A stretch of 63,968 nt of DNA, the filler included, from Nanobdellota archaeon (GTDB lineage: Archaea; Nanobdellota; Nanobdellia; B33-G15), in NCBI GenBank assembly GCA_003660925.1. It is 7 parts of 7 records of this genome, joined end to end, with 100 filler letters (N's around TTAATTAATTAA, not from the genome) between each part and the next. Parts side by side here need not be neighbours in the genome. Positions count along the whole stretch, not along the records: positions 10,363 to 20,198 come from QMVD01000022.1; 6 more parts are not named here. One strand, 5' to 3'. Below the pieces are notes generated by a model. It was not told the DNA's origin. It did no database searches and was given only the letters and a program-made list of their open reading frames with translations. Positions within the stretch are counted from its first letter, which is position 1; each line of letters opens with the position of its first letter. The position numbers and the translations under genes are program-made. Shown in pieces: positions 5,429 to 21,032 of this stretch.

Positions 5429-6112
5429 GTTTATCACCCTCTTTTCTTTCGTCTCATCCAACCCCAACTTTTCCACCAAGAATCTAGCCTCCCTCCTAGT
5501 CAACCCAAAAGAGCATAAAGCCTCCCTTAAGGCGTTTTTGAGCTTTTTATCGTACTGTAATAACACTTTGGAGAAAAGTGTGTTGACTTTCTTCCTCTTC
5601 AACTTTACCGCCACGGCCTTCGCCTCGAGCTTTGGGCGAAAGGCTTGTTTTGGCACTTCCATTAGTCCTTCCACTTCGAAGAACTCCCCAGTCAAGAGCC
5701 CAATTTTCCCTTTCCCAGACATTTCTCGGTGGAGGTCCTCTAACACTACGAGTACAGCGAACTCAAAATCGTGCCTAGTCATCCTAAACAAGAGAGGTTC
5801 GTTAATTAAGGAAGGAGAGCTAGAGAGGAGGACTTGGAATTGGGGCCACTTCACCTTCAACGCATTTCCTGTGATCACTTGTGCTCCTACCCCACCCAAT
5901 TTCCCTCCGAATTCCTTGTCCTCCTCTATCACGTAAACTCTCTCTGCTTTCTCCACTAATTTCCTAGTCAGGAGAGCATCTCCTCCTATTTCTAACACCA
6001 CTTTCCCCTTTCCAAAATTCGAAAGAAATTCCAAGAGGTCCTCGTCCGCTATGAAGTGCCGGTTCAAATTCGTGTTTAACTCGGACTTCTTCCTACATCC
6101 CTCGGGGTTCAT
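5357..6112 (-). CDS. KsgA/Dim1-like rRNA adenine dimethyltransferase homologue with degenerate motifs
   Basis: HFIAD, VVLEIG, GNALK, VPKQAFRPK and KKLKNAL are KsgA-like. The GxGxG and NLPY motifs are replaced by GGDAL and SSPS. Confidence 0.75.
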   Translation of the reverse strand: MNPEGCRKKSELNTNLNRHFIADEDLLEFLSNFGKGKVVLEIGGDALLTRKLVEKAERVYVIEEDKEFGGKLGGVGAQVITGNALKVKWPQFQVLLSSSPSLINEPLLFRMTRHDFEFAVLVVLEDLHREMSGKGKIGLLTGEFFEVEGLMEVPKQAFRPKLEAKAVAVKLKRKKVNTLFSKVLLQYDKKLKNALREALCSFGLTRREARFLVEKLGLDETKEKRVINLSDQDFFVLSNELRKLGKEVHKS

Positions 6113-6726
6113 ATGTTCAGTCTCTTCTTGATCTGTTCTTCTACGTAGCTCAAGAGGACGTTTCTTAGGGTGGCTCTGACGTCTTCTCCATAGTTTTCTT
6201 TGCCTTCAAATTCTGCGAATCTCTTGCTGAGCTCTTCCTCGCCTATGAAGGAGAGCCACTTAGAAAAATCCCCTTGACTCAAGTGGTGCTTTATGGAATT
6301 CAATGGCACCTTATCTAGAGCATCGTAGAACTCTCCCAAGTTTGTGACTACGTTCTCACAGTACCAAAACCTGAACGGATACTTGGTGCTCATCAACTCG
6401 CTCACTTGTCCTTCATTCAACAAGGCGTGAATTTCCACGTCTCCCATGGATATTTTGCCCTTCTTTCCAAGGATGGACTCCTCTATCTTAGGTTCTGCGA
6501 TCTCCGCCAACCTCATGAACTCCTCGCTGGGCAGCCTTATCACCTTCTTCTGGTAGTTCACGCTGATCACTGAGTTTATCCCCTTCTCCTTCAAGTAGGC
6601 CAGGGTCTCCTCTACGCGCTCTATGTTCTCCTTCAACTCCTTAGCAGCATTCATATGTTCTTCAATGGGGCTTATCTGAGAGATGTCGAAGTCCTCCACC
6701 ACCATGTCCCTCAACCTTTCCATCAT
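6109..6726 (-). CDS. Protein with C-terminal DUF5752-like domain
   Basis: PFRFW...NLGEFYDALDKVPLNSIKHHLSQGDFSKWL...ELSKRF. Confidence 0.7.
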   Translation of the reverse strand: MMERLRDMVVEDFDISQISPIEEHMNAAKELKENIERVEETLAYLKEKGINSVISVNYQKKVIRLPSEEFMRLAEIAEPKIEESILGKKGKISMGDVEIHALLNEGQVSELMSTKYPFRFWYCENVVTNLGEFYDALDKVPLNSIKHHLSQGDFSKWLSFIGEEELSKRFAEFEGKENYGEDVRATLRNVLLSYVEEQIKKRLNI

Positions 6727-7478
6727 AAGCCTAACCTCCTTTTAAGCATTTGAAAGAGGGAGGGGTATTGGAAACCCTCGCCGACGAGCTCGCCTGCTAT
6801 TTTCTTCATGGCCAAAGAAACCTTGGCATCTGGGTACAGGTGTACCACGGGTATGCTGTACTTTATCCCCTCTTCCACCCTTCTATCTTCAGGGATCTCT
6901 CCTATCAATGGGAGCCCGAGCAAGGCCATGACTTGTTCCCTCGAAAGAGGCGCTTTCTTTCTCTGCCTGTTTAAAATGACCCCCAAGAGTTTGATGCCAT
7001 AGGTGTTTATCAGTTTCGCCATTTTCAGGGCCTCTATCACTGATGGCAGGTCTGGATTCGTCACGATTATCGCCTCGTTCACTGCATTCAAGACCCAGAG
7101 GGTTTCTTCTCCAAGGCTTGGAGCGGTATCCACGAGCACTATCTCAAACCTCTTGGCGAGCTCTCCTATGACGTCAGGTATTTTGCTATAGTCCACGAAA
7201 TAGTCCCTAAGTTTTATGGAAGCTGGGAGCACCCACATCCCAGAGCCGTGCTCACTCAAGGCATCGAAAGGGTTAGCTTCCCCTCTGAGCACGTTGTTCA
7301 AGTTGAGGGGGTTGAAATGCATGCCAAGGTGCACTCCCAAAGAAGAACCAGAGGTATTGGCATCCACCGCTACCACTCTTCTCCCAAAATCATGTGCTAA
7401 CGCTGCACCTATGTTGGCGACGAATGTGGTTTTTCCCACCCCTCCCTTCCCAGAGAAAACGCCGATAATTCTGGCCAT
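6723..7478 (-). CDS. minD: MinD/ParA family ATPase
   Basis: Deviant Walker A SGKGGVGKTT, VDTAP, GVILNR and IPED. Confidence 0.85.
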   Translation of the reverse strand: MARIIGVFSGKGGVGKTTFVANIGAALAHDFGRRVVAVDANTSGSSLGVHLGMHFNPLNLNNVLRGEANPFDALSEHGSGMWVLPASIKLRDYFVDYSKIPDVIGELAKRFEIVLVDTAPSLGEETLWVLNAVNEAIIVTNPDLPSVIEALKMAKLINTYGIKLLGVILNRQRKKAPLSREQVMALLGLPLIGEIPEDRRVEEGIKYSIPVVHLYPDAKVSLAMKKIAGELVGEGFQYPSLFQMLKRRLGL

Positions 7479-7654
7479 GTTTAAAAAGGGTGTATTTTTA
7501 ATTCATAAAGTTTACCTTTACGTGAATATCTTTCAACCGATCTCTAAGAAACCGCCTCCAGAATGAAAACACCAGGAGCAACGACTTTTAGAGGAGAGCT
7601 CCCGGAAAGGAACAGATAGTAAAAGAGATAAAATGAGCCTTGCCTTATAACCAC

Positions 7655-8575
7655 ATGTTCTTCAGGAAGGAAAAGAAGGTGTTCCCTTTAATGATCAAGG
7701 AGCTCTCGGGAGGCCCGAGGGGCATCATAAAGAACATGACATTTAAAGTGAGGAAGAGGGATATCTTCGGAATAGTTGGGTTGAGTGGTTCTGGGAAAAC
7801 CACCTTGTTGAAACTCATCTTGGGATTGGTGAAGAAGAGAAGTGGAAAGGTGAGCTTTTATGGGAGGCCCCTCTGGAGGAGTAAGAAGCTCATAGGGTTC
7901 TGTCCCCAAGGCCACTCCTTCTTTGAGGAGTTAACGGTCAGGGAGAACATTCTCCTGTTCGGCTCTCTTTACGGGGCGAAGAGCCCGCTGGAGGTCGGGA
8001 GAAGGATGTTGAAAGAATTAGAGATGGAAGAGAAACTAGACGAACCAGCGAGCAACCTATCTGGAGGCCAAAAGACGAGGTTAAACGTGATCTTATCCTT
8101 GCTTCATGAACCTAAGCTGATCTTCATGGACGAGCCTTTCACGGGCCTTGACTATTACAATCGAAACCTCCTTTGGAATTTCATAAAGAAGTTGAGGAGA
8201 AGGGGCTGCACAGTGATCCTGACCACTCATTTATTGGATGAAGCTCAGAAAAATTGCACGAAACTCCTCGTCCTGAAGGAAGGGAAGAAGTTCGTTTATG
8301 GAAATGTGGAGGACATCAAGGAGAAAGTGGGATTGGATTATGTGTATGAGGTGAAGTTCAAATCGTTGTCCAAGAGGGCTCTGAAGGAAATAATCGCATC
8401 CTGCAAGGAAGAAGGGATAGATGTACTGAACGTACAGATAGATACTCTCCTCTTTGGGGTGAGAGAGGAGAAGAAGAGAGCCTTCCAGAGGTTGTTAAGG
8501 TGCTACGAACATGAGATCATCTCCTCCAGGAAACCGAATATAAACGACCTCTTCTTGAAGGTGGTGAGCGCGTGA
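7655..8575 (+). CDS. ABC transporter ATP-binding protein (ABC-2/DrrA-like)
   Basis: GLSGSGKT, LSGGQ, IFMDEP and TTH motifs. Confidence 0.92.
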   Translation: MFFRKEKKVFPLMIKELSGGPRGIIKNMTFKVRKRDIFGIVGLSGSGKTTLLKLILGLVKKRSGKVSFYGRPLWRSKKLIGFCPQGHSFFEELTVRENILLFGSLYGAKSPLEVGRRMLKELEMEEKLDEPASNLSGGQKTRLNVILSLLHEPKLIFMDEPFTGLDYYNRNLLWNFIKKLRRRGCTVILTTHLLDEAQKNCTKLLVLKEGKKFVYGNVEDIKEKVGLDYVYEVKFKSLSKRALKEIIASCKEEGIDVLNVQIDTLLFGVREEKKRAFQRLLRCYEHEIISSRKPNINDLFLKVVSA

Positions 8576-9804
8576 AGCTCTGGAGCTTGTTAAGGAAGGA
8601 ATATTTATTGACCATGAGGAGGAAGAAGTTCATCTTCATGATCCTCCTCCTTCCCCTCTTGATAGGGGTAGTTTATCAGTTATCCACTAACCTCCAGCCG
8701 GGGGTGGAGATAAAGGTGGCTTTATGTAATTTGGATGAAGAGTCCGTGGATCTGGTGGAGGCTTTGAAGGAGAGATTCTCTGTGGTGGAAGTGGCAGGAG
8801 AATGCGAAGCCCAAATCAAGGAGATGATCAGGGAGAAGGAAGCATTCTTAGGTATTATCATACCTAGGGATTTCACGAGGAAGTTGGAAGACCTAAACAA
8901 GTCGGAGATCTATTTGTTTTACGACAACTCGAATCCTGTGTTAGCGAGTTACTTAGAGTTCTTTTTCCAGCTGAGCCTTAGGAATTACGAGAACGCCCTT
9001 CTGTCCAAGGCTGGGGAAGGGATAAGAGAAGAAGTAACTAAGATAGAGGGTTTGTTGGAGGCTGCTAAGTTGCTAGTGGGTTTGGTCGGCTACGGAACTG
9101 AGCTTATGGATAACCTGAATCAAATCCAGGAGATGTTAAGTAAGATAAAGCGTATGGACGTGACCTTCATAACCGAACCCGTGGTCCCTGTGAAGGAGGG
9201 GGCGTTCGAGCTCAAGAACGAGAAGGGGATCGGGGCAGCCATAACCTTTTCCATCCTCACGCTCTTCACAGCCCTGTTGTTGGTGTCCAGCAGCGTGATA
9301 TGGGACAGGGAGAGGAAGTTCTTGCTGAGGTTAAGGACCTCGGGCACCCCAAATCTGACTTATATTCTTTCTAAGACCCTTTTCTTTGACTTAGTCCTCA
9401 CCGTCCAATTCCTCGTCATCTTTCCCCTATTTTCCTCCTTCTCCTGGTTGGAACTAAATCTCGTTTCTCTCCTGGTCTCCATCCTCGTGGTCACCAGCAT
9501 AAACACCCTATTGGGTATGTTGATAGGAATCTTCAGCGAGAATCAAGGGATAGCGATACTGTTGTCCTTGCTCCTCACCCTCCCTTTCCTCTTCATTTCT
9601 GGCATCTTCTACCCAAGCGAGCTCTTTCCCCAACCCCTGAGGTTCATCTCTGACGTTTTTCCGCTGAGCAATGAGATGAACCTTTTGAAGGAAAGCATGG
9701 CTTTCGGCTATAGCCTGCAAGAGCTTAAGAACTTAAACGTGAACCTCACTTACCTCCTCCTCTTCTTCCTCCTTTCCTGGTTAGGTTTGAGGTTCAGGCA
9801 TTAA
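8572..9804 (+). CDS. ABC-2 type permease
   Basis: One TM, a large extracellular region, then five TM helices; FISGIFYP motif; 4-nt overlap with the ATPase gene. Confidence 0.88.
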   Translation: MKLWSLLRKEYLLTMRRKKFIFMILLLPLLIGVVYQLSTNLQPGVEIKVALCNLDEESVDLVEALKERFSVVEVAGECEAQIKEMIREKEAFLGIIIPRDFTRKLEDLNKSEIYLFYDNSNPVLASYLEFFFQLSLRNYENALLSKAGEGIREEVTKIEGLLEAAKLLVGLVGYGTELMDNLNQIQEMLSKIKRMDVTFITEPVVPVKEGAFELKNEKGIGAAITFSILTLFTALLLVSSSVIWDRERKFLLRLRTSGTPNLTYILSKTLFFDLVLTVQFLVIFPLFSSFSWLELNLVSLLVSILVVTSINTLLGMLIGIFSENQGIAILLSLLLTLPFLFISGIFYPSELFPQPLRFISDVFPLSNEMNLLKESMAFGYSLQELKNLNVNLTYLLLFFLLSWLGLRFRH

Positions 9805-9836: not shown

Positions 9837-10262
9837 ATGAAGAATTACGCGAGGAAGTACGGCGATGCTCTTCTCTCCGTACTTGTCTTGGATGGAGAGG
9901 AGAAAGCAATCCTGAACGACTTGAAGTTCAGGGAACTCAAGGGAGGGCTTCCCCTTTCCTTCGTCTATGAGCAATTTCATTTGAAGAATGAGAAGTTCGT
10001 CTCCAAATTATTGAAAGCCAAAGTTCTTTACGATAAGGGCTTCATGGACATGTTGAAGAAGTCCATGAAGTTGGTGGAGCAGGTGAGGGAGAGGTTTGAT
10101 AAGTACATCTTATGTGTGGTGCTCTTCGGTTCTTGGTCGAGGGGGGAGGCGAAGGAGGACAGCGATTACGATCTGGCGGTGGTGGTGGACGACACGGATT
10201 TGAAGGAGATGACGAGGGTGGAGGCGAAACAGAAACTATTTGGGATCATAAATTCCGTGGCC
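9837..10262 (+). CDS. Nucleotidyltransferase (MNT/Pol-beta superfamily) domain protein, truncated by contig end
   Basis: VLFGSWSRGEAKEDSDYDLAVVVDD (GS...DxD motif). Confidence 0.85.
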
Positions 10263-10362
10263 NNNNNNNNNNNNNNNNNNNNNNNNNNNNNNNNNNNNNN
10301 NNNNNNTTAATTAATTAANNNNNNNNNNNNNNNNNNNNNNNNNNNNNNNNNNNNNNNNNNNN
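10263..10362. other. Artificial contig linker
   Basis: N-run + TTAATTAATTAA (stops in all frames) + N-run, 100 nt. Confidence 0.99.
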
Positions 10363-10948
10363 TCCTTATGTTCTCCTTTGCAACTACATCCAACCCTATG
10401 GTGGGCTCGTCTAGGAAGAGGACCTTTGGGTCGTGGAGCAAGGCTGTTATGAACTCACACTTCATCCTCTCCCCTAGGGAGAGGTTCCTGACGGGTATCT
10501 TCTGGACGTCCTTCACTTTGAGGAGTTTCACTAATCTTTCCAACCTCTCCTCGAACTCCTTCTTATCTATCTCGTATATCTCCTTCAGGAGGTGGAAAGT
10601 GTCCAAGGGAGGTAGGTCCCACCAAAGTTGGCTCTTCTGACCGAAGATGACCCCTATGTGCTTTACGTATTTCTCCCTCTGCTTCCAAGGGACAAAACCT
10701 AGGACCTTTGCCTCTCCTGATGTGGGGGTGAGGATGCCAGTCAACATCTTTATGGTGGTGCTCTTCCCCGCCCCATTTGGGCCTATGAAGCCTAAGAACT
10801 CTCCCTTCTTGACGTCGAAACTTATGTCATCCACAGCTACTTTTATCTTGTACCTTCTCCTCACCAATGATTTTAGGGACCCGATTATCCCCGGCTCCTT
10901 CTTGTAAGTCTTGAACTCCTTCCTTAATTCCCTCACCCTTATTATCAT
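10363..10948 (-). CDS. ABC transporter ATP-binding protein, 3'-truncated
   Basis: GPNGAGKST, LSLGERM and LFLDEPT. Confidence 0.92.
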
Positions 10949-10968
10949 GTGCCCCAGAAGTAGTCAGC

Positions 10969-10982
10969 AACTTTTAAAAGTT
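10969..10982. promoter_or_regulatory. Palindromic, probably bidirectional TATA element
   Basis: Perfect palindrome AACTTTTAAAAGTT centred ~27-28 nt from both divergent start codons (10948 and 11004). Confidence 0.6.
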
Positions 10983-11003
10983 AGGAGAGTCCTTGTAAAT
11001 ACG

Positions 11004-11150
11004 GTGATCGTCTGCAGTAATTGTGGGAGCAAGAATGTAAAATACATAGGTTCTGTGGTCGTCCCAACACCTCTCGTGAGAGAACTTGAGGTGGAAGTGG
11101 TGGAGATATATAAGTGTGAGGATTGTGGGGTTGAGTTCAGGGTTCCGTAA
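11004..11150 (+). CDS. Small zinc-ribbon protein (48 aa)
   Basis: GTG start; CSNC...YKCEDCG. Confidence 0.7.
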   Translation: MIVCSNCGSKNVKYIGSVVVPTPLVRELEVEVVEIYKCEDCGVEFRVP

Positions 11151-11181
11151 ACTTTTTAATCCCCTTCTCTATTTAACACGT

Positions 11182-12651
11182 ATTGAAGTCTCAGAAATCG
11201 AGAGGAAGAGAAGGAAAATACTAGAAGAGATAAGGAAGTTAGGGATAGACCCTTATCCGCATTCTTTCAAGATAAACGCTTCCATCCAAGATGTCATCAG
11301 AGAGAAGAACATGAGGAAGACCTACGTGACCGCTGGGAGGATAATGCAGCTTAGGGACATGGGGAAGATAACCTTCATAAACATAGAGAACGCGGAGGCG
11401 AGCCTTCAGTGCTTCCTGAGCGTGGAGAACCTCAAGGAGGATTACGCCTTCTTCAGAAAGTACGTGGGGAGGGGGGACATCATAGGGGTGAAGGGGAGGT
11501 TGTTCTATACCAAGAAGGGAGAACTCACCCTGAACGTGAAGGAGTTCAAGTTATTGACCAAGGCCCTTTTACCTCCCCCTCAGAAGTGGAAGGGGATAGT
11601 GGACGAGGAGATAAGGTACAGGAAGAGATATTTGGACCTAATCATGAACCAACGGACCAGGGAGATCTTCAAAAAGAGGGCCTTGATCATAAGAGAGATA
11701 AGAAACTTCCTGAACGAGAAGGGTTTCTTGGAGTTCGAGACACCCATCCTCCAACCAGTTTACGGTGGGGCTGCAGCAAAGCCCTTCATAACCCACGTGA
11801 ACTACTTGGACGAGGATTGGTACCTCCAGATATCTCCTGAGTTGTACCTGAAGAGACTGGTCATAGGGGGGTTCGAGAGGGTATATACGGTGGCGAGGAA
11901 TTTCAGGAACGAAAGTGTGGATGTGAGGCACAATCCGGAGTTCACCATGTTGGAGGTCTACCAGGCCTATGCTGATTATAATGATGTGATGAAATTAATA
12001 GAGGACTTGTTCTTATATGTTCACAAGAAGGTGTTCGGAACCCCAATCCTGAAACTGAAGGATGGGAGTAAGTTCGACTTGAGGAGGAGGTGGAGGAGGC
12101 TCACCATGCTTGACGCCTTGAAGGAGTACGCGGACCTAGATGTGGAGGGGATGAGCGATAAGGAGCTCAAGAGGTTGCTGAAGGAGAATGGGATAGAGCT
12201 CCCCTTCTACAATCGAGGGCTAGCCATAGCCGAACTCTTCGAGAAGTTATGCGAGCACGAGCTCATCCAGCCCACCCACATCATAGATCACCCTAGGGAG
12301 ACCACGCCTCTGTGCAAACTACATAGGAAGAACGAGAGCTTGATAGAGAGGGTGGAGAGTTACATAAACGGGGTTGAGCACACGAACGGCTACACAGAGT
12401 TGAACGACCCCATCCTCCAGGAGAAGTTCTTCCTGAAAGAGATGGAGCTCAGGAAGAAAGGGTATGAGGAAGCTCATCCCTTAGATATGGATTTCGTGGA
12501 GGCATTGAAGTATGGGATGCCTCCGACAGGGGGGGTGGGGATCGGGGTGGATAGGATGATCATGACTTTCCTGGGAGTGGACAGCATAAAAGAAGTGATA
12601 CCCTTCCCAATGGTAGCGAGAGGCTTCGATTTAGATCAGTCCCATACCTGA
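11182..12651 (+). CDS. lysS: Class II lysyl-tRNA synthetase (start codon uncertain)
   Basis: GIDPYP, OB-fold AGRIM, RYRKRYLDL, YGGAAAKPF, FRNE, HNPEFTMLE and GMPPTGGVGIGVDR. Confidence 0.96.
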   Translation: MEVSEIERKRRKILEEIRKLGIDPYPHSFKINASIQDVIREKNMRKTYVTAGRIMQLRDMGKITFINIENAEASLQCFLSVENLKEDYAFFRKYVGRGDIIGVKGRLFYTKKGELTLNVKEFKLLTKALLPPPQKWKGIVDEEIRYRKRYLDLIMNQRTREIFKKRALIIREIRNFLNEKGFLEFETPILQPVYGGAAAKPFITHVNYLDEDWYLQISPELYLKRLVIGGFERVYTVARNFRNESVDVRHNPEFTMLEVYQAYADYNDVMKLIEDLFLYVHKKVFGTPILKLKDGSKFDLRRRWRRLTMLDALKEYADLDVEGMSDKELKRLLKENGIELPFYNRGLAIAELFEKLCEHELIQPTHIIDHPRETTPLCKLHRKNESLIERVESYINGVEHTNGYTELNDPILQEKFFLKEMELRKKGYEEAHPLDMDFVEALKYGMPPTGGVGIGVDRMIMTFLGVDSIKEVIPFPMVARGFDLDQSHT

Positions 12652-12897
12652 AAGGACGTCCTCGTTGAGTTCCTCGAACTTCTTCAGGATCCTCTCCTTC
12701 TCCTTCCCAGTTATTTCCAAAGCCTTCCTCAGCGCTTCACATTTCTCAAAAAACTCTTCCTCCGCCTTTATGAAGAAGAAGTAACCTTCCCTGTCCTCTC
12801 CTAAGGACTTAGCAGAGACATACTCAAAGCCCTTCCTCTTCAACTCCTCATCCTCTTCTAGAGTTTCCTTCTTCTCCACGAAGAACACTTTCATCAT
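12631..12897 (-). CDS. Hypothetical protein
   Basis: Lys/Glu-rich ORF with the genome's typical codon pattern, downstream of the HAD gene. Confidence 0.7.
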   Translation of the reverse strand: MMKVFFVEKKETLEEDEELKRKGFEYVSAKSLGEDREGYFFFIKAEEEFFEKCEALRKALEITGKEKERILKKFEELNEDVLSGMGLI

Positions 12898-12914
12898 GCC
12901 CTGAGAAGGAAAAT

Positions 12915-13502
12915 TCACTTTTTAACTTTTATGAAATCCAAGACCTCTCTCCACTCCCTCACGTCCCTGCCGAACCTCAGGAACTTCAACCCCAATTTCT
13001 TGGCCGGGACTTCATCGTTCTCCGTGTCACCTATTACTAAGATATCCCTGCCAAACTCCTCGATCACCTTCTCGTAGGGCTCCGTGTCGGGCTTCCCCTC
13101 TTCCACGTCATCCGAGGTCACCACCAGGTCAAACTTCCACCCGAACTTCTTCAACACCAACTCGACGAACTCTCGGCTGCTCGAGGTCACCAAGGCCACC
13201 TTTCCCCTCTTCTTTAGTTCATTCAGGACCTCTGTTGCTCCCTTCATCTCCTCGATTTCGTCGAAATGCTTTAAGGTGTCCTCCCACTTTTCCTTCCAGA
13301 TCTCTTCTATCTCCTCCTCGCTTAACGAGGAGAACAATTCTTTTATGATGTCCTTCACTGGCCTGCCCATGAGCTCCTTTAATTTCTTCCTCAATCTCTC
13401 CTCGTCATCCAAACCCTTTCTCTTAAACACCCTTATAAAAGAGTCTATGTGGACCGGAATGCTGTTTATGAGGGTTCCGTCCAAATCTACTATGAAGTTC
13501 AT
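12915..13502 (-). CDS. HAD-family phosphatase (subfamily IA)
   Basis: DLDGT, VTSS, KP and IGDTEND motifs. Confidence 0.92.
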   Translation of the reverse strand: MNFIVDLDGTLINSIPVHIDSFIRVFKRKGLDDEERLRKKLKELMGRPVKDIIKELFSSLSEEEIEEIWKEKWEDTLKHFDEIEEMKGATEVLNELKKRGKVALVTSSSREFVELVLKKFGWKFDLVVTSDDVEEGKPDTEPYEKVIEEFGRDILVIGDTENDEVPAKKLGLKFLRFGRDVREWREVLDFIKVKK

Positions 13503-13544
13503 CAAATCAGCAACGTTTTTATTTATTTAAATCTTAACCCTTCC

Positions 13545-13718
13545 ATGGAGCTTCCCCTCTGGTTCGTGCTCTCCGTGACCTTGATCTTTTCCTTCACGTG
13601 GTTCTATCTCGCCTCTCACACCCTTTCCTTCATAGGCCCGTTCGCTTGGTCCCTTTTGACCTTGATCTTCTTCTTCCCTTGTCTAGTCTTGTGGCTCATT
13701 TATCTCAAAATATTGTGA
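13545..13718 (+). CDS. Small two-TM membrane protein
   Basis: 57-aa hydrophobic ORF after an AT-rich promoter-like segment. Confidence 0.6.
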   Translation: MELPLWFVLSVTLIFSFTWFYLASHTLSFIGPFAWSLLTLIFFFPCLVLWLIYLKIL

Positions 13719-13773
13719 CTAATCATAAATTTCCTTAAATATCCCACAAAAAGCTTAAATTTTAGGGCTTCTT

Positions 13774-14073
13774 ATGGATAAAGAGCGAAGGGGGGAGGGT
13801 AGAGTTATGACTAATAACAATTTAAGGAACTTGGTTCTAGAGGTCATTTCTTCCAAGTGGCCTTGCAACGTCACGGAGATCGCTAAGGAATTAGGCCTCC
13901 TCTCCGGGGACGAGAGAAAGGACAGGGTAAAGATAAACCTAATACTTTATCACCTGCGGAGGTTGGGACACGAGAACAAAGTGGTGATGAAGCGGATAGG
14001 GAGGAATTTGGTGGTCTGGCCCACTGAAGTGGAGAAGCTCAGGACGTTGAAGGAGTTGATGGAGGGGATATAA
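13774..14073 (+). CDS. Winged-helix transcription regulator (ArsR-like)
   Basis: VLEVISSKWPCNVTEIAKELG...ILYHLRRL...KRIGRNLVVWP. Confidence 0.75.
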   Translation: MDKERRGEGRVMTNNNLRNLVLEVISSKWPCNVTEIAKELGLLSGDERKDRVKINLILYHLRRLGHENKVVMKRIGRNLVVWPTEVEKLRTLKELMEGI

Positions 14074-14606
14074 TGGCCATACCTTCTCTATTCAAGAAGC
14101 TCCTCTTCTCTAAACAGTTCAAGTACGAGAAGGGGAGGTTCTACTTGATGACAGAAGTCCCTGGGGTGATCCTCCCCTTGGACGTGTGGGTGAAACTTCA
14201 GAAATCCCTTATGGATGTGGATAAGGATGAAGCGATCAAGATCATCTCCAAGATAGCTTTTGAACAGGGAGAGAATGCGGGGAAGAGGTATAAGATGAGG
14301 GTGACCAGTTCTTTCAAGGGGCTCCTGAAGTTCTCTAAGGAACTCTCCGAGGTCCTCGGCATGGGAGTCATAACTTACCTGAAGGGAAGCGGTTCCGAAG
14401 TTATCTTTAACATCTCCCCTTCTCCCTTCGCCGAGAGGTTCGTTGAACTCTACGGAAGGACCAAGGAACCGGTTTGTTACTACCTCTCCAACATCGCGGC
14501 TGGTGCCTTCAGCGGCTTCACTGGCAAGCGTTGGGTGGCAGAAGAGGTTAAGTGCGTAGCGAAGGGAGACCTCTACTGCCAAGTTATGTTGAGGGTGAAA
14601 AGATGA
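14073..14606 (+). CDS. V4R (4-vinyl reductase) domain protein
   Basis: GMG, PVCYYLSNIAAGAFS and EEVKCVAKGDLYC are V4R signatures. Confidence 0.88.
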   Translation: MAIPSLFKKLLFSKQFKYEKGRFYLMTEVPGVILPLDVWVKLQKSLMDVDKDEAIKIISKIAFEQGENAGKRYKMRVTSSFKGLLKFSKELSEVLGMGVITYLKGSGSEVIFNISPSPFAERFVELYGRTKEPVCYYLSNIAAGAFSGFTGKRWVAEEVKCVAKGDLYCQVMLRVKR

Positions 14607-15928
14607 AGTCGAGGAAGGAGCTGGAAAGGACGATTGATAAGAGGATAAGGTGGGTGGTGGAGTACGCTTATAAGCATTCTCCTTACTATCACAAGTTGTT
14701 CAAGGAAAGGGGTCTCACCCCTTCTGACATAAAAGGGAGAGAAGACCTGAAGAAGATACCTATCACCACGAAGAAGGAGCTCATAGAAGGCCAACCACCG
14801 AAGGGAGATTTCTCCTTCTTCTCCAGAGACCCGAAGAACAGGAAGATATTTCGCTTTTACACTTCAGGGACCAAGGGTTTGCCGAAGATACTCGCCCTTT
14901 CGGAGCAGGAGTTGGACTTGGTCATAGAAATATCTAAGAGAGCGTTCGAGATGGCAGGGATCAGGAGGGGGGATGTGGTGCTCAACTGCTACCCCATCGG
15001 GATAAACGCTTCTGGGATGCTCACGGTCTTGACTTTCGCCAGCATGGGAGTGGAACAAATTTCGGCTGGGGTGTCCCCCTTTCCCCCTAAACTGAGCCTC
15101 ATCAAGACCCACAAGCCGAGGGCCATGACCGCCCTCACTTCTTATGCGGACAGATTGGCAAGGGAAATATCCCTTCAGGGGGTAGACCCATCGACGTTAG
15201 GTATAGAGGTCATCGTGGTGGCCGGGGAGGCCTCCACGAGGAAGAAGAGGGAGAGGATAGCGGAGGAATTCAACGCAGAGGTTTACAACCTGTACGGAAC
15301 CACGGAGGGCAGGATGCCCCTAGCCATGGAGTGTTCGGAGCATAACTTACACGTGATGGAAGACGGAAACTACTTGATGCTCTACGACCCCAAAACAGGG
15401 GATTTCATAGAGAATGAAGGGGAGAAAGGAGTGGACGTCATGACCACGTTGAATTATGTTGGGAAGGGGCTTGGGACACCCTTGATAAACTACAGTCATG
15501 GAGATACGTTCGAGTTCATATCAGACAAGTGTGGATGCGGGAGCATCTTCAGAGTGATATCGGATGTGTGGAGGGCGGATGATGCGATAGTGATAAGCGG
15601 GGCCAAGATAGATCCAGCGGAGATAGAAGCGGTCCTTCACGAGCCCGGGAATTTTAAGAAATTGACTGGAGAGTGGGAGATGTTAGTGGATTTCGACGAG
15701 GAGGAGAGGGTATATGACTTATTACTTAGGATTGAGGCGAGGGGAAAGCCAGAGGAGGAATTAGGGGAGAAGGTCAAGAGAGAGTTGATGGAGCTGAACT
15801 ACCCGCTTGCGAATGAGACATCCATGGGAAGGATCCGTTTTAGGGTGGAGGTGGTCGGCAGGGGAGGGCTAGAACTTTACAAAGTGCCTGGAAAGCCTAA
15901 GAGGATATCCGACAAGAGGAAGTCATAA
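14603..15928 (+). CDS. Phenylacetate-CoA ligase (PaaK)-like adenylate-forming enzyme
   Basis: SPYYHKLF, YTSGTKGLPK, AGEA, YGTTEG, PLINYSHGD, CGCG and GKPKR. Confidence 0.88.
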   Translation: MKSRKELERTIDKRIRWVVEYAYKHSPYYHKLFKERGLTPSDIKGREDLKKIPITTKKELIEGQPPKGDFSFFSRDPKNRKIFRFYTSGTKGLPKILALSEQELDLVIEISKRAFEMAGIRRGDVVLNCYPIGINASGMLTVLTFASMGVEQISAGVSPFPPKLSLIKTHKPRAMTALTSYADRLAREISLQGVDPSTLGIEVIVVAGEASTRKKRERIAEEFNAEVYNLYGTTEGRMPLAMECSEHNLHVMEDGNYLMLYDPKTGDFIENEGEKGVDVMTTLNYVGKGLGTPLINYSHGDTFEFISDKCGCGSIFRVISDVWRADDAIVISGAKIDPAEIEAVLHEPGNFKKLTGEWEMLVDFDEEERVYDLLLRIEARGKPEEELGEKVKRELMELNYPLANETSMGRIRFRVEVVGRGGLELYKVPGKPKRISDKRKS

Positions 15929-16921
15929 CTTCCTGTAGACGTTGCTGAATCCATCTAGGTGTATGTCCAAATCTCTCCTCGGCCTTATCCTCTTAGCGAA
16001 GTCATTTTCTAATTGAGTCCACAGGACGTCATCCCCGAATCTAGTTATCCTTAACCTTCCTTCCTCTCCATATGGGACCAATTCTCCATCCTCGTCAACG
16101 ACGTCCACCTTGACCAGGGGGTTGGGATAATAGTTTAAGTTGTTGCTCCCATCATCGAAATGGAAGCAGGGACCCAGCAAGAAGTGGCCATACCAGCCCA
16201 CGACCTTCAATCCGAACTCTCTTTTCAGGCCAGCTAATACTTCGGGAGACATCTCCATCCCACCAAAGGCCATGACTCTTAGATCCATCTTCTCAAATAA
16301 TCCCCTTTCCTGAAGGAGGGGGATGATGAAGGGGACCACGACCATTCCACCTATCTTCTCCTCGGAAACGATCTCCTCCACTCGCTCCAACATGGGGTCA
16401 AAGTGTCTCATGACCTCTTCCCTCTTCCCTTCCATCAACTTCCTCTTCAACCCTCTTGTCTCCACGGGGATGAAAAAGGCCTTACCTCCCCTCTCCTCCA
16501 CCACTCTTTCCAGGTGTACCCTGTACAGCCCTTCTGGTCCAGGGATGATCCAATTGATGTCTCTCGGAACGCCTGAGAGGTCCAGACATTCGTCGTAATA
16601 TCTCACGATGATCTCGTTCGACTTCTTGGACCAAAAGACGACTTTTTGGGGCCCAGTAGTTCCAGAAGAGGTTGAAGGAAAGACCTCCTTAAGGCTCTTG
16701 GGTTTGAACAACTTGGGGTCCACGGTGAACTTCCCACCCACTATCCGGGGCAACTTCTCCTCGGGCTGTGGACCCACGTGGCATATGAAGTCCTCATAAC
16801 TTTCTATGTCCCTGGGTGAGATCTTGTGCTTTTTTGCGTACTTCACCCAATAAGGGGTCTCCTTGAAGTGGAGGCGAACCGCTTCGCTTATGGCGAGGTC
16901 GAGTTCTCTCTTGCTCAACAT
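15923..16921 (-). CDS. EhpF-like truncated adenylate-forming enzyme
   Basis: RLHF..TPYW, SSGTTGPQK, GGKAFFI..ETRGLKR, FGGMEM, WYG and VPYGEEGRL; 332 aa, lacking the ANL C-terminal lid. Confidence 0.72.
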   Translation of the reverse strand: MLSKRELDLAISEAVRLHFKETPYWVKYAKKHKISPRDIESYEDFICHVGPQPEEKLPRIVGGKFTVDPKLFKPKSLKEVFPSTSSGTTGPQKVVFWSKKSNEIIVRYYDECLDLSGVPRDINWIIPGPEGLYRVHLERVVEERGGKAFFIPVETRGLKRKLMEGKREEVMRHFDPMLERVEEIVSEEKIGGMVVVPFIIPLLQERGLFEKMDLRVMAFGGMEMSPEVLAGLKREFGLKVVGWYGHFLLGPCFHFDDGSNNLNYYPNPLVKVDVVDEDGELVPYGEEGRLRITRFGDDVLWTQLENDFAKRIRPRRDLDIHLDGFSNVYRKL

Positions 16922-16954
16922 AACGTATTAAAACTGGGTTTGAATTATAAAAAT

Positions 16955-17548
16955 ATGTTCCCATGCCCTGAAGCCTTTAAGAAGTTCTGCGAGCCCACGA
17001 GGTACGCGGAATCCGACGACCCTCGGATCATAAAGCTTGCGAGGAAGATAACCAAAAAGGATAAGACCCCAAAGCAGGCTGCGAGGAGCATCTTCAGGTG
17101 GGTGAGGGACAATTACCTTTGGGACATAAAACCCATTGTAGGGGCCAGGAGATTGTTGGAGAGGAGGGAAAAGAGGGCACTGTGCACGGATAAAACCAAC
17201 CTCTTCATCGCCCTCTGCAGGGCAGTTGGTATCCCTGCTAGGTACGTCCTGGCGGATTGTTGGTTGAAGATAAGGGATAAAGAGCTCCCGAGGAAGTCAA
17301 GGCATATATACGCCGAAGTCTGGACTGGGGAGGAATGGGAAGTCGCGGATCCTTCCTTTGGGAAGGGAAGCGAGAAGCTCTTTCAGATATGCGTCTTCGG
17401 CAAACCATCTTGGACGAGAGTTATTCATAAGAAGAGGATGAGGTCTTTATCGCCCCTGCTCGTCTTCATCGTAAACCTGATCATGAAGTACTCCTCGTTC
17501 TCCAGAGTCGTGAGGGAAGAGATGAGAAAAGTTGGTTACGGGAAGTAG
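16955..17548 (+). CDS. Transglutaminase-like (Cys-His-Asp) protein
   Basis: CTDKTNLFIALCRAVGIPARYV, HIYAEV and WEVADPS. Confidence 0.88.
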   Translation: MFPCPEAFKKFCEPTRYAESDDPRIIKLARKITKKDKTPKQAARSIFRWVRDNYLWDIKPIVGARRLLERREKRALCTDKTNLFIALCRAVGIPARYVLADCWLKIRDKELPRKSRHIYAEVWTGEEWEVADPSFGKGSEKLFQICVFGKPSWTRVIHKKRMRSLSPLLVFIVNLIMKYSSFSRVVREEMRKVGYGK

Positions 17549-18738
17549 TTCAGTGCTTCTCCGAGTTCCTGGTGTGCCTTAGCATACTTCTTTAAACTAA
17601 TCCCTTTCATCACGGCCTCTATCGCCTGTCTCATGGCTCTTGCCCCGCTCAAACTTCCTTTCGGGTGACCGTGGATCCCCCCTCCTGCCTGAATTATCAC
17701 ATCCTTTCCAAATATCTTCATCAATGAGGGGACCAACCCGGGATGTAATCCTCCACTCGCCACCGGGAAGACAGGTTTTACCACCTTCTTTTCCCTCAGC
17801 GCTTCGGCGATCTCTTTGACTTCCTCCTTCTCTCCCTCCATCTTCCCAACACCAGTCCCCACGTGAAGCTGGTCCACCCCCACTAGCCTCAAGCATTTAG
17901 CTAGGGCGAGCATGCTCATACCATGCTTCTTATTTCGGGTGAACGCGGCGTGCATCGCCCTGTGAGCGTGAATGACTAGTCCAAAGTCCATATCTCTCAC
18001 GCTCTGAAGGGCGGAAAAGCCTGAGGTGATGACGTCTATCATTACATATCTCCCTCCATGCTCTTTCACGAACTCTATCCTCCTGATCATCTCCTCGAAG
18101 GGAGCGGTGACGTTTGGCATGTAAACCTTTCTCTCTCCGGTCTCCTCTTCCGCTTTGTCCCTTGCCTCAAGAGTCCTCACTACTCTCTCCTCGAATGGGT
18201 TGAACCTCTGGTCGGTGAGGTTCTCATCGTCCTTGATTATATCACATCCTCCCAACCACGTCTCATAAGCGACTTCTGCGTGCTCCTTCGGCCCTAATCC
18301 TAACTTTGGTTTTATTATGCTCCCGAGCAGAGGCCTCCCTCTCACCTTCAATAACCTCCTCACACCACTTATCCCAAACCTCGGGCCTGGGAATGATCTC
18401 TCTAACTTTTTCGGGAAATGAACATCTTCCAACCTCAAGTTCTTGACAGCCTTCATGCCAAAGATGTTCCCCGCGATGGACGATAAGATCTGGGACATGT
18501 TTCCGGGTTCAAATAACTCTGAGGGATAAGCGATCTTTACCTTATTACCTCTTACCTCGAAGACCTTGGCTGCTAGCTTTTTCAAGTTCCTCTTGAAGGT
18601 CTTCACTTCCGTCCAAGTCCCTATGGAGCTTTCAGCGGCGACAGCCCCCGCATTTTTGCTTGGTTCGACGAGAAATTCAACGATCACGTCGTTTTTTGAA
18701 GGAGAATAATCGAGTTGGATGTAATCCTCATATCTCAT
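17536..18738 (-). CDS. rbcL: Form III RuBisCO large subunit
   Basis: AAESSIGTW, IAGNIFGMK, KPKLG, KDDENL, HAHRAMH, HVGT, GKMEG, ASGG and GGGIHGHP; catalytic residues intact. Confidence 0.95.
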   Translation of the reverse strand: MRYEDYIQLDYSPSKNDVIVEFLVEPSKNAGAVAAESSIGTWTEVKTFKRNLKKLAAKVFEVRGNKVKIAYPSELFEPGNMSQILSSIAGNIFGMKAVKNLRLEDVHFPKKLERSFPGPRFGISGVRRLLKVRGRPLLGSIIKPKLGLGPKEHAEVAYETWLGGCDIIKDDENLTDQRFNPFEERVVRTLEARDKAEEETGERKVYMPNVTAPFEEMIRRIEFVKEHGGRYVMIDVITSGFSALQSVRDMDFGLVIHAHRAMHAAFTRNKKHGMSMLALAKCLRLVGVDQLHVGTGVGKMEGEKEEVKEIAEALREKKVVKPVFPVASGGLHPGLVPSLMKIFGKDVIIQAGGGIHGHPKGSLSGARAMRQAIEAVMKGISLKKYAKAHQELGEALNYFP

Positions 18739-18768
18739 GAAAAGAAGAAAGAAAAGAGGTTTATTACA

Positions 18769-19377
18769 TTAACGCTTCTTTAAGAGACCTATGAGCAGAT
18801 AGGCATCTCCCTCTTCGGTGTTCAACTTGGAGAAGAGTGCGTTCACCGACTCTTCCTTCGCGAGAACCTTCTCACCCGTCAACTGTCTCCCGTAAAGCCC
18901 AGGTATGATGAGTTCCCTCGTGACATCTTTTCTTATCTTCTTCGCCAGTTCGAACACGCTTTCGGGCACTTCCCCTCTCGTGGTTGGGTAGAGCTCTGGC
19001 AACAGTCGCTGTAAAGCACGATAGACCCTCGGGTTCTGCGTCCTTGTGGCGACGAACCTGATGCCTTCCTCTTCGAAGACCCTTATCAACCTTTGGCAGA
19101 GATGCTTAAACAACCCTCTTCCTTGAAAGGCTCTCCTGATCACAGTTCCGCGCAAGAAACCTACTCTAATACCATCGATGTCCCTTAATTCATAAGAGGT
19201 AAAGCCCATGGGTTCATTGTCATCGTAGACCACGAAGATGCCATTCGTTTCGAGGGTGTTGTGTTTCACCTCTTCCATGGGAACTTTCTTTCCAAAACCA
19301 TCCTCTGCGACCTCATGCAACTTCCTCACCAAACCATCTCCAATTTCCCTTGGCTTCAACAGCTTCACTTCAAGCAT
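18769..19377 (-). CDS. GNAT-family N-acyltransferase
   Basis: Acetyl-CoA motif A VIRRAFQGRGL, and TRTQNPRVY. Confidence 0.8.
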   Translation of the reverse strand: MLEVKLLKPREIGDGLVRKLHEVAEDGFGKKVPMEEVKHNTLETNGIFVVYDDNEPMGFTSYELRDIDGIRVGFLRGTVIRRAFQGRGLFKHLCQRLIRVFEEEGIRFVATRTQNPRVYRALQRLLPELYPTTRGEVPESVFELAKKIRKDVTRELIIPGLYGRQLTGEKVLAKEESVNALFSKLNTEEGDAYLLIGLLKKR

Positions 19378-20170
19378 CTTTCCCCACCTCCTTCACACCT
19401 ATCAAGAGCAGGTCGGAGTGCTCCTCTCCCACCAGAATGGAATAGAAGGGTTCCCTCGCCTTGAGTAGAGTTCCTTTCCCTTTCCCGATGATTTGTCCTT
19501 TCTTCACGTAGGAGAAGTTGTGGAGGGAACATTCGAAACCACCCTCAGGCGCTCTCAGGAAGAACATCGTGCGATAGATGCGAGGATCGGACGCTTTCCC
19601 CTCTCCCTCTATCATCCCGAGGTTCACTAAGAGGTTGGATATGATCTTCCTACAGTTCTCCCTCGCGGCGTAAGACCCCTTCTTTCCCAGCTCTATCGAG
19701 ATGCCCGTCCTGCAGTGGTCTATCAGCGCCTTCCCCTTAGCGATTTCATCTCCCATCAAGACGAGCCTCTTCACCCCCGTCAATGAGGCCAACTCTAAGT
19801 GTTTCTGTCCTTCTTTCGTGCTTATGGCGAAAGGGGGAGAGAACGTGGAAGTAGAGTGTAGGTCCACCACTAAGGGACACCTCCTTACCTCTCTCACTAT
19901 CTCACGGGCCAGCCTTTCCTCATAATTCCCAAACCTGCTTCCTGGGAAGACCCTGTTTAGATCGGATTCTAAGAAGCGCTTATCGTGCTTCACTGCCAAT
20001 AGATTGGCCACTATGACCTTTACTTTCCCATCTATTCCCTCCAATCTTTCCAAGATCTTGAGCGCCGTTAATCCCTCTTTTTCATCCCCGTGCAGGCAAG
20101 TCACGATGCAGAGTTTCTTTCTCCCGCTCCCGAAGACATGTTTCTCGTACTCTGGGCCAAAAACAATCAC
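19370..20170 (-). CDS. Succinylglutamate desuccinylase/aspartoacylase (M14) family
   Basis: HGDE, DLNRVFPG, DLHS and IELG. Confidence 0.9.
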   Translation of the reverse strand: MIVFGPEYEKHVFGSGRKKLCIVTCLHGDEKEGLTALKILERLEGIDGKVKVIVANLLAVKHDKRFLESDLNRVFPGSRFGNYEERLAREIVREVRRCPLVVDLHSTSTFSPPFAISTKEGQKHLELASLTGVKRLVLMGDEIAKGKALIDHCRTGISIELGKKGSYAARENCRKIISNLLVNLGMIEGEGKASDPRIYRTMFFLRAPEGGFECSLHNFSYVKKGQIIGKGKGTLLKAREPFYSILVGEEHSDLLLIGVKEVGKDA

Positions 20171-20198
20171 CCAGTAAGAAATAGCCGAGTCTAGTCAA

Positions 20199-20298
20199 NN
20201 NNNNNNNNNNNNNNNNNNNNNNNNNNNNNNNNNNNNNNNNNNTTAATTAATTAANNNNNNNNNNNNNNNNNNNNNNNNNNNNNNNNNNNNNNNNNNNN
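20199..20298. other. Artificial contig linker
   Basis: N-run + TTAATTAATTAA + N-run. Confidence 0.99.
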
Positions 20299-21032
20299 AC
20301 TCTGTCTTCCAAGAGTTCTTTCAACCTCTCAAGGGGCTTCAAGATCTCCTTTTCCTTGATGTCCACGAACTTTTTGATCTCTTTTGCCAATTTTTTCCTC
20401 ACTTTCCTCTTCTCCTTCGCCTCTTCCTCAGCTTCCTCTGCCACTTCAGATGTTTCTTCCTCTTCCCCTTTTCCCTCTTCCTCCTTCTTACCTTTCCTCA
20501 GCTTAACTCCCCCCAATTTTCCAGCGCCAGCAGCGATGGCTGCGATGGCGAAGAAGACGAAGAAGGCGATGGCGAAGAAGTAGAGGATCCCAGCTATCTG
20601 GTGGAGACCCAAGTGGCTCAAGGCGATGGCTATCAAGAAGAAACCTAGAGAACCAAAGAAGAGTTTCCACCTTATATCTAATCCCCCAAAGCCTTCTCCC
20701 GTCCCCTTTAACAACTTAGCTATGATCCCTAAGAATATGCCACCTACCACTATCCACAGGATGTAGTTGACGTATTGTCTTGCAGTGGTTTCGGGGACTC
20801 CAACCAGGACGCCTATCAAGACCGCGACGCCCAATCCTGCTGCGATGGCATTATTTTCCGCTCCCAAGGCGGTCTTGGCGAACACCACGGTGACCACCAT
20901 GAGGGCTAAGGCCAAGGAGAAGGTGGGGTAGGCTTGGAAGAAGGATTGTAAAGAACTCATGCCAGCAGCGATTTGGGCAGAGGCAGGCAGGAGTAGAAAT
21001 AATGGACTTAATACTACTAATTTTCTCATCAC
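20299..21032 (-). CDS. Multi-pass membrane protein with charged coiled-coil tail, truncated
   Basis: About 5-6 hydrophobic helices followed by a Glu/Lys-rich segment. Confidence 0.75.

Follow-up and report, generated by a model that had tools for sequence, protein, structure and literature searches.

The question raised by this locus is whether a run of enzyme and sensor genes on one contig of a nanobdellotan archaeon forms a single functional unit, and what such a unit would do. Within the 63,968-nt stretch of joined contigs analyzed here (the window), contig C22 of the genome G000 (window positions 10363-20198) carries all seven open reading frames that the original prediction had combined into one module for acylation and sensing of a small molecule. 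Each of them is present in the sequence, as are the 1-nt (14073) and 4-nt (14603-14606) overlaps that couple the wHTH, V4R and PaaK-like genes, the convergent orientation of the EhpF-like gene relative to this operon, and the 8-nt overlap of the M14 and GNAT genes. The family labels hold for the V4R protein, both ligases (AMP-binding), the transglutaminase-like protein (Transglut_core), the GNAT (Acetyltransf_1) and the deacylase (AstE_AspA_cat), all of which score above the Pfam cut-offs, the exception being the wHTH, which has no Pfam match. The gene list itself was incomplete, since a complete form III RuBisCO gene (TIGR03326, 574 versus 497 bits), located between the transglutaminase-like and GNAT genes, had been omitted (Table 1).

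Table 1. Features of the cassette and of its neighbors, in window coordinates.
Feature	Position	Strand	Basis
BRE/TATA-like element; predicted wHTH-V4R-ligase operon promoter	13747..13760	+	Sequence; archaeal promoter consensus
Small, likely winged-HTH regulator, 88 aa	13807..14073	+	Phylum family accompanying V4R genes
Stand-alone V4R protein, 177 aa	14073..14606	+	PF02830 above Pfam cut-off
PaaK/F390-synthetase-like ANL ligase, 441 aa	14603..15928	+	AMP-binding Pfam, intact ANL motifs
EhpF/GriC/ThnN-like truncated ANL protein, 332 aa	15923..16921	-	AMP-binding Pfam; EhpF top PDB match
33-bp gap, predicted to serve the EhpF-like and transglutaminase-like genes as a common divergent promoter	16922..16954	.	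Two opposed TATA-like boxes
Short stand-alone transglutaminase-like protein, 197 aa	16955..17548	+	PF01841
Form III RuBisCO, outside the cassette	17536..18738	-	TIGR03326 above cut-off
GNAT acetyltransferase, outside the cassette	18769..19377	-	PF00583
M14 AstE/AspA-like deacylase, outside the cassette	19370..20170	-	PF24827 (AstE_AspA_cat)

Two gene starts differ from alternatives that the sequence also offers. The wHTH gene, previously placed at 13774, most likely begins at 13807, because G001, a genome of the same genus, carries a 1-nt deletion after the ATG at 13774, while a start at 16826 for the transglutaminase-like gene is ruled out by the orthologues, which place it at 16955. The A/T core of the BRE/TATA-like element is conserved in G001 and in locus L089, and its role as a promoter is presumed here from the archaeal consensus. 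In the divergent gap the TATA-like boxes lie approximately 29 and 31 nt 5' of the respective start codons, positions from which they may drive transcription of the two genes. A scan for sigma-70 promoters gave scores no better than chance. Recent horizontal acquisition of the region is not supported by its composition (codon score z 0.0 to 0.5; GC3 0.65-0.70 versus a genome mean of 0.64).

The unit that is conserved consists of five genes (13807-17548), encoding the wHTH, V4R, PaaK-like, EhpF-like and short Cys-His-Asp proteins. G002, a genome of the same family, retains this block, including the C-terminal part of the wHTH and the identical 1-nt overlap with V4R, and has its RuBisCO gene on a different contig. 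Among the four genomes of the family, the GNAT gene is found only in G000 and G001, as is the M14 orthologue (G002 and G003 have only a 28% identical paralogue), and GNAT, M14 and RuBisCO occur at none of the five cassette loci outside the genus. This distribution largely refutes the proposal that, within a seven-gene module, the GNAT transfers and the M14 enzyme removes the ligase-activated acyl group, which we now consider very improbable, even though all of the genes are intact on a single contig (the M14 residues H27, E30, H105 and E160 are present) and RuBisCO, GNAT and M14 are found together in G001. RuBisCO interrupts the set, and the GNAT/M14 pair has an HTH-like ORF of its own upstream: the contig end at 20198 falls inside another ORF, the G001 counterpart of which is an HTH-like gene 5' of the M14 gene. 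RuBisCO, GNAT and M14 thus appear to be unrelated neighbors of the cassette.

The pair of PaaK-like and EhpF-like ligase genes recurs at seven loci that span four lineages and show two gene orders (the window, G001, G002, G363, G407 and the metagenome loci L090 and L091), although the carriers are few and the related ones are not independent. Outside the genus, the paired ligases are 22-51% identical to those of the window. V4R is present at six of the seven loci, where it overlaps or abuts a ligase gene (upstream at five, downstream at one), and is adjoined by wHTH at three loci and by KaiC at the remaining three. The second gene order is exemplified by L090, with EhpF-like, transglutaminase-like, PaaK-like, V4R and KaiC genes in succession (27-47% identity). 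The neighborhood of wHTH or KaiC, V4R and the PaaK-like ligase, together with the EhpF-like and short transglutaminase-like genes, is therefore found in distant lineages, and the predicted acylation and sensing module survives as far as the ligases, V4R and regulator are concerned, but not in its GNAT/M14 part, which does not co-occur with them. A full-length EhpF-like match is found in 4 of 401 phylum genomes, in each case within the cassette. A contig scan with the EhpF-like protein yielded a single locus (L058), identical in DNA to L014 and therefore counted only once with it, and a word-index homologue search with the same query returned only a near-identical copy.

Sensor genes of this kind are not confined to the cassette. 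Genes resembling V4R are present in 54 of the 401 phylum genomes, mostly without enzymes; KaiC or the cassette wHTH lies within 1.5 kb at 30 of 40 V4R loci (KaiC alone at 26), and ligase or reductase matches are lacking at 34 of the 40. V4R and KaiC/wHTH therefore form a general signaling pair, which could merely control the enzymes. These data, together with locus L091, which has the ligase pair and none of V4R, wHTH or KaiC within 17 kb, are what might be expected if the ligases were an independent biosynthetic or housekeeping unit and the V4R-wHTH/KaiC genes frequent but functionally unconnected neighbors. This explanation is quite improbable in view of the overlapping or abutting V4R and ligase genes at six of seven loci, as compared with 77 other PaaK-like metagenome loci, none of which has V4R, the cassette wHTH or the short transglutaminase; among other ANL loci of the phylum, 2 of 17 have V4R. 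The same V4R family is elsewhere joined to FIST and a ligase/reductase pair (including LuxE/LuxC above the Pfam cut-offs at L242), so that the sensor parts are constant and the enzyme module is exchanged. That cassette has in common with the window the V4R family, the wHTH/KaiC partners and an operonic ANL enzyme, whereas the window variant lacks FIST, the reductase and a 153-aa accessory protein and has the EhpF-like and short transglutaminase-like proteins instead. KaiC-like ATPases have been proposed as archaeal signal-transduction hubs (Makarova, Galperin and Koonin, 2017, cited in PMC5847659; the full account may already list V4R neighbors), and KaiC adjoins V4R at three of the seven cassette loci, whereas the window cassette has no KaiC and the single KaiC match of the genome is on contig C16.

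The V4R protein itself (PF02830, 50 versus 31 bits) keeps the putative zinc ligands C135, E158, C161 and C169, and shares its fold and Cys/Glu ligands with MopR, DmpR, PoxR and MsvR; as in MsvR, V4R is associated with an HTH, here encoded alongside. Compared with MopR, DmpR and PoxR, it is a stand-alone protein with no AAA+ domain. The family profile aligns with MopR residues 29-192, and the His/Trp positions that we take to anchor phenol in MopR are replaced by S92 and I114, so that the pocket gives no support for an aromatic ligand. The wHTH family has conserved WP, YH and WP-x-E-x-x-x-LR motifs; in addition to the missing Pfam match, four weak HTH-type families each match one of nine family members, which makes ‘winged HTH’ only a likely label. 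MsvR is a fusion of HTH and V4R, whereas the HTH of the cassette is a separate gene, of a different family, and is swapped for KaiC in other carriers; assignment of the V4R-wHTH pair to MsvR is rejected on these grounds and on score (NF053755, 16.5 versus 220 bits).

In the PaaK-like ligase the P-loop, A5, A7 and A8 motifs, the C-terminal Lys 431 and the Cys/His zinc site are all intact, and T87-S88-G89, Y231/E235, D301, R324 and K431, as well as C244, H250, C310 and C312, are invariant or nearly so. Although these motifs and the zinc site are common to PaaK and the F390 synthetase FtsA, to which the protein is 30-35% identical, it qualifies neither as a true PaaK (TIGR02155, 157 versus 646 bits; NF041878, 190 versus 700 bits) nor as an FtsA (TIGR03335, 269 versus 459 bits), since it scores below the cut-offs of both families. 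In a quick tree the cassette proteins form their own clade (9 rows, SH-aLRT 97), sister to ordinary PaaK-like proteins; the ligase of G363 and G407, only 21-24% identical, is unplaced.

This placement bears on the possibility that the cassette serves inducible scavenging or detoxification, with V4R sensing an acid from the host or environment and wHTH or KaiC inducing the ligases to form an acyl-CoA for use or disposal, and no signal being made. Such a role, which we consider doubtful, would agree with phenylacetate-CoA-type ligases as the nearest solved structures, with the position beside ordinary PaaK-like proteins, with a CoaB domain in G000 and with the logic of DmpR and MopR, in which the substrate is sensed. 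However, CoaB is found in only this one of the four carriers, IorA scores above its cut-off in none of the four (G000 and G002 included), and no catabolic genes are present at any cassette locus, just as the lack of paa genes noted in the original prediction is borne out at the window locus. Scavenging would also leave the constant EhpF-like partner and the Cys-His-Asp enzyme unexplained.

The EhpF-like protein comprises only the N-terminal ANL domain, retaining the P-loop and lacking the C-terminal subdomain. Both sequence and fold comparisons with the PDB place EhpF first (model pLDDT 95.6, TM 0.80 to 3HGV), and its relatives are annotated as arylcarboxylate reductase or ThnN. EhpF/EhpG, GriC/GriD and ThnN/ThnO are two-component carboxylate reductases; in contrast to these pairs, with which it shares the EhpF fold, the 332-aa protein is partnered by a PaaK-like ligase, has no aldehyde-dehydrogenase-like partner gene at any of the seven ligase-pair loci and lacks a C-terminal G-V-Y tail. 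This tail, a motif noted in the present analysis and not a published criterion, is missing from all six PaaK-paired EhpF-like proteins examined, whereas the 30 closest full-length EhpF-like representatives include 6 that have it, and the 92 further ones include 55; both plasmid homologues keep it, one of them adjoining an aldehyde-dehydrogenase-family gene. Aldedh (PF00171), LuxC and FIST were not found in G000 (88.5% complete) or G002 (93%), and the Aldedh-family genes of G363 and G407 are unlinked to the cassette. Membership of the ligases in LuxE/LuxC was rejected, as PF04443 (LuxE) and PF05893 (LuxC) match no window protein and neither ligase has the LuxE-type C-terminal Cys.

The short transglutaminase-like protein has a Cys 77-His 117-Asp 132 triad that is invariant in all three aligned orthologues, and its fold matches 3ISR, albeit in a weak model (pLDDT 61) and at the superfamily level only. 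It is rare, just two of 301 phylum genomes having a full-length match, and occurs at only three of the seven ligase-pair loci, the G001 contig stopping before its position. At L255 it accompanies V4R-KaiC without the cassette ligase pair; the end of this locus carries an ANL-like gene. Protein amides are targets of transglutaminase folds, and a reversible protein-acylation switch, in which a protein target (V4R itself, KaiC or another) would be acylated or adenylylated by the ligases and freed of the group by the Cys-His-Asp enzyme, with no release of a free small molecule, deserves mention, although we judge it unlikely. Among NCBIfam models the ligase matches F390 synthetase best, an enzyme whose chemistry is AMP transfer; sister cassettes use LuxE-type acyl-protein synthetases; and Bet3 proteins, which have the V4R fold, are acylated. 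Set against this are the LuxE-type Cys missing from both ligases, the absence of the hydrolase from several loci and the failure to find CofD in G000 or G002. For the last reason F420 is an unlikely target, the CofD family being found, in these incomplete genomes, in one of four carriers (G363).

The reading that we favor, tentatively and from gene content, is that the five genes are an accessory cassette that would both make and sense a small molecule, the ligases forming an acyl conjugate and V4R passing its presence to wHTH or KaiC. Adenylation of a scavenged carboxylic acid is the role predicted for the PaaK-like ligase, with the tail-less EhpF-like protein as its likely second adenylating partner; transfer or removal of the acyl group would probably fall to the Cys-His-Asp enzyme. 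V4R would then bind the product and probably signal to wHTH here and to the KaiC ATPase elsewhere; every chemical step is our inference, as are the ligand, the contact between V4R and wHTH and the regulatory outcome. As product we would expect an amide or ester conjugate, possibly formed independently of CoA in the manner of ClxA/ClxC or NatL2, and not an aldehyde of the EhpF/GriC type. Closoxazole assembly involves a pair of ANL ligases from one locus, ClxA and ClxC, which form amides without a thiotemplate (PMC9400959), and the cassette likewise has two ANL enzymes per locus. Its ligase has the PaaK-like fold and sequence similarity in common with these enzymes and NatL2 (9S3L, 6SIW), whereas the cassette has no precursor synthase or amidohydrolase, its second enzyme is truncated, and a sensor and regulator are built in. 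No gene of the 3,4-AHBA/DHQ-synthase family was found in the four carriers. No description of the cassette was found in the literature covered, which does not extend to the papers on the KaiC hub and on the structure of EhpF, either of which could bear on its novelty.

A broader and rather speculative extension is that the cassette represents modular chemical signaling in DPANN archaea, in which a fixed reader of V4R with wHTH or KaiC is combined with exchangeable synthases, the PaaK-like and reductase-less EhpF-type enzymes here making a new acyl conjugate for sensing of cell density or host. DPANN archaea are generally regarded as poor producers of small molecules, and to our knowledge there is very little work on how they signal. 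With the GNAT/M14 pair set aside, experiments narrow to five genes, and a genome of 0.5-0.8 Mb in which two adenylating enzymes remain coupled to a ligand-binding protein offers a small, expressible test system for the ligands of archaeal stand-alone V4R proteins and the inputs to KaiC-type hubs. The occurrence of an EhpF/GriC-type protein in a new, reductase-less partnership also bears on how this truncated ANL family works.

The cassette lies entirely on one contig (G000:C22, window 10363-20198) of the G000 genome (0.67 Mb, 88.5% complete), and its codon use resembles that of the rest of the genome. The gene overlaps described in the original prediction are correct in the sequence; its proposal of a seven-gene module, comprising the cassette and a GNAT/M14 deacylase pair, overlooked the form III RuBisCO gene that parts this pair from the cassette's five genes. 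The N spacers between contigs (window 10263-10362 and five similar places) are crossed by ORFs at 9837-10310, 10307-10948 and 20247-21032, which are truncated or artificial.

Genes of the cassette and its flank (window positions, read 5' to 3')
Gene	Position	Strand	Basis
wHTH (likely label)	13807-14073	+	ORF
V4R	14073-14606	+	ORF
PaaK-like ligase	14603-15928	+	ORF
EhpF-like	16921-15923	-	ORF
transglutaminase-like	16955-17548	+	ORF
form III RuBisCO	18738-17536	-	574 bits, cut-off 497
GNAT	19377-18769	-	ORF
M14 deacylase	20170-19370	-	ORF

The five-gene core recurs. G002 (93% complete), from a different genus of the same family, retains the order wHTH-V4R-ligase with a convergent EhpF-like and a divergent transglutaminase-like gene (identity 49, 51, 36 and 54%); its wHTH gene is interrupted by the contig end, yet shows the same 1-nt overlap, and rRNA-like sequence borders the cassette. 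No cassette match was found in a further family member, G003 (72% complete). With a 50-row profile, full-length EhpF-like matches were obtained in 4 of 401 phylum genomes, namely G000, G002 and the distant G363 and G407, where the order is KaiC-V4R-ligase with the EhpF-like gene convergent. By the same profile, the cassette occurs in two of the five genomes of the G363/G407 genus and is thus accessory. When metagenomes were scanned with the ligase clade as query, 80 loci were returned; one is a near-identical copy (L089) and two more fall in the clade: L090, with the new order EhpF-like, transglutaminase-like, ligase, V4R, KaiC, and L091, with the convergent ligase pair alone. Further pairs of the latter type have indirect support, as the clusters of the L091-type ligase and of the EhpF-like protein agree in six contig sizes. 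In total, the cassette's ligase pair is present at 7 loci in 4 lineages, accompanied by V4R in 6, wHTH in 3, KaiC in 3 and the short transglutaminase in 3; named homologues are mostly from Aenigmatarchaeota, and the host is accordingly of DPANN type.

The GNAT/M14 pair does not share this distribution. In tblastn searches of GNAT, M14 and RuBisCO against 280 loci, the GNAT and a closely similar M14 turned up only in G000 and its congener G001, and neither orthologue was found in the 93% complete G002, leaving the seven-gene module a very remote prospect. In G002, where RuBisCO and the cassette are on different contigs, RuBisCO adjoins orthologues of genes in the window for a HAD phosphatase (12915-13505), a 95-aa protein (12631-12918) and a small membrane protein (13545-13718); this suggests that the cassette and the GNAT/M14 pair lie within an older gene neighbourhood. 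The M14 and GNAT genes overlap (window 18769-20198, minus strand), and in G001 (L030:268-1919) they come after an overlapping HTH-like ORF of 91 aa, the end of which falls at the window's contig edge; HTH, deacylase and acetyltransferase are possibly a separate genus-specific unit. The family to which this GNAT belongs has no name and bears a TRTQNP motif.

V4R, the cassette wHTH and the short transglutaminase were found at none of 77 other PaaK-like metagenome loci, 3 of which have a KaiC-like gene. Seventeen further phylum loci of the adenylating enzyme (ANL) superfamily include V4R at 2 and a FIST gene at 3; several of the remainder (7 of the 17 were read gene by gene) sit amid glycosyltransferase/radical-SAM-like genes. 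The 197-aa transglutaminase has full-length matches in 2 of 301 genomes, and all remaining matches are to a domain within a ~660-aa protein; another short orthologue, at L255, adjoins KaiC-V4R-methyltransferase and an unassigned ANL-like gene. That V4R-wHTH/KaiC and the ligases are unconnected neighbours is quite improbable.

The PaaK-like ligase retains the P-loop, A5, A7 and A8 as well as a zinc site of Cys/His residues and the C-terminal Lys431, and scores under the PaaK and F390-synthetase cut-offs. In a quick tree it forms one clade with 8 relatives (SH-aLRT 97), and the sister group of this clade is the ordinary PaaK-like proteins; the G363/G407 ligases have long branches and no placement. 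The predicted structure of the EhpF-like protein (pLDDT 95.6; top match EhpF, TM 0.80) has no C-terminal subdomain, and its family annotation is arylcarboxylate reductase or ThnN. Proteins of the EhpF/ThnN type act together with an aldehyde-dehydrogenase-like partner; such a gene neighbours an EhpF-like homologue on a Halalkalicoccus plasmid and was not found in the G000 or G002 genomes. When 122 of 150 EhpF-like hits were retained by length (the 30 closest and 92 more distant), a C-terminal G-V-Y-type tail was present in 55 of the 92 and 6 of the 30 full-length representatives; the two plasmid homologues that were checked both have it, and all six ligase-paired proteins lack it. Elsewhere, a further FtsA-like ANL gene, next to one or two membrane proteins whose ends resemble hexapeptide repeats (G000:C4:2-2541; L017, L015, L018), is conserved in all four family genomes. 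A CapK-like ANL gene lies within a radical-SAM/glycosyltransferase cluster (G000:C7:11842-18757); since L020 (G033:C56), from a genome of a different family, is almost identical in protein sequence, shared or mis-binned DNA is suggested.

The V4R zinc ligands are conserved. The protein has no His/Trp pair at the positions that hold phenol in MopR, and its pocket, as judged from sequence, does not point to a phenol ligand. V4R-like genes occur in 54 of 401 phylum genomes. Among the 40 best-scoring neighbourhoods (unpublished genomes excluded), KaiC or the cassette wHTH lies within 1.5 kb in 30, a FIST gene is present in 10, and a ligase or reductase match in 6. The enzyme-bearing neighbourhoods, together with L055, L185, L186 and L187, define a sister cassette, V4R-FIST-ligase-reductase (its loci include L238, L242, L243, L248, L249, L253 and L258), one example of which has a LuxE/LuxC pair above Pfam cut-offs. 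The pattern is of a fixed sensor-output part with swappable enzyme modules. The sister cassette also carries a conserved 153-aa protein, KaiC and at times the cassette wHTH, and several of its ligases have a Cys close to the C-terminal end, like LuxE. The L255 genes (5253-9154), with a SAM methyltransferase and the ANL-like gene, which the end of the contig truncates, are a possible third enzyme module. A second wHTH-V4R pair in G002 (L259:2733-3977) is followed by a methyltransferase-like motif gene at the contig end, and tandem double-V4R proteins (361-401 aa) adjoin KaiC genes in L250, L251 and L270.

The transglutaminase-like protein retains a Cys77-His117-Asp132 triad. Alongside the observed gene linkage and catalytic motifs, we infer each step of the chemistry and binding: the PaaK-like ligase would adenylate a scavenged acid, with the tail-less EhpF-like protein as a second adenylating partner, the Cys-His-Asp enzyme may move or strip off the acyl group, and V4R would bind the product and signal to wHTH or KaiC. 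ClxA/ClxC, two ANL ligases that form amides without a thiotemplate, are a precedent (PMC9400959). This make-and-sense scheme is the likeliest reading, albeit at somewhat less than even chances; against it stand the sensor-free L091, the optional Cys-His-Asp enzyme, 34 of the best-scoring 40 V4R loci with no enzyme match, a V4R pocket with no phenol indication, and the failure to find a precursor synthase in the four carriers. Substrate-induced acyl-CoA formation is a weaker contender, given that IorA is above cut-off in none of the four carriers and CoaB is present in just one, and reversible protein acylation is less likely again.

Each cassette protein is a member of a known family, and control of a ligase by a ligand-binding regulator is a logic already known. 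No description of the five-gene combination was found in the literature searched; the KaiC hub and EhpF structure papers might mention V4R-KaiC-ligase neighbourhoods. Smaller than the module originally envisaged, the cassette is real and rare, with an unusual enzyme pairing, and is compact enough for experiments.
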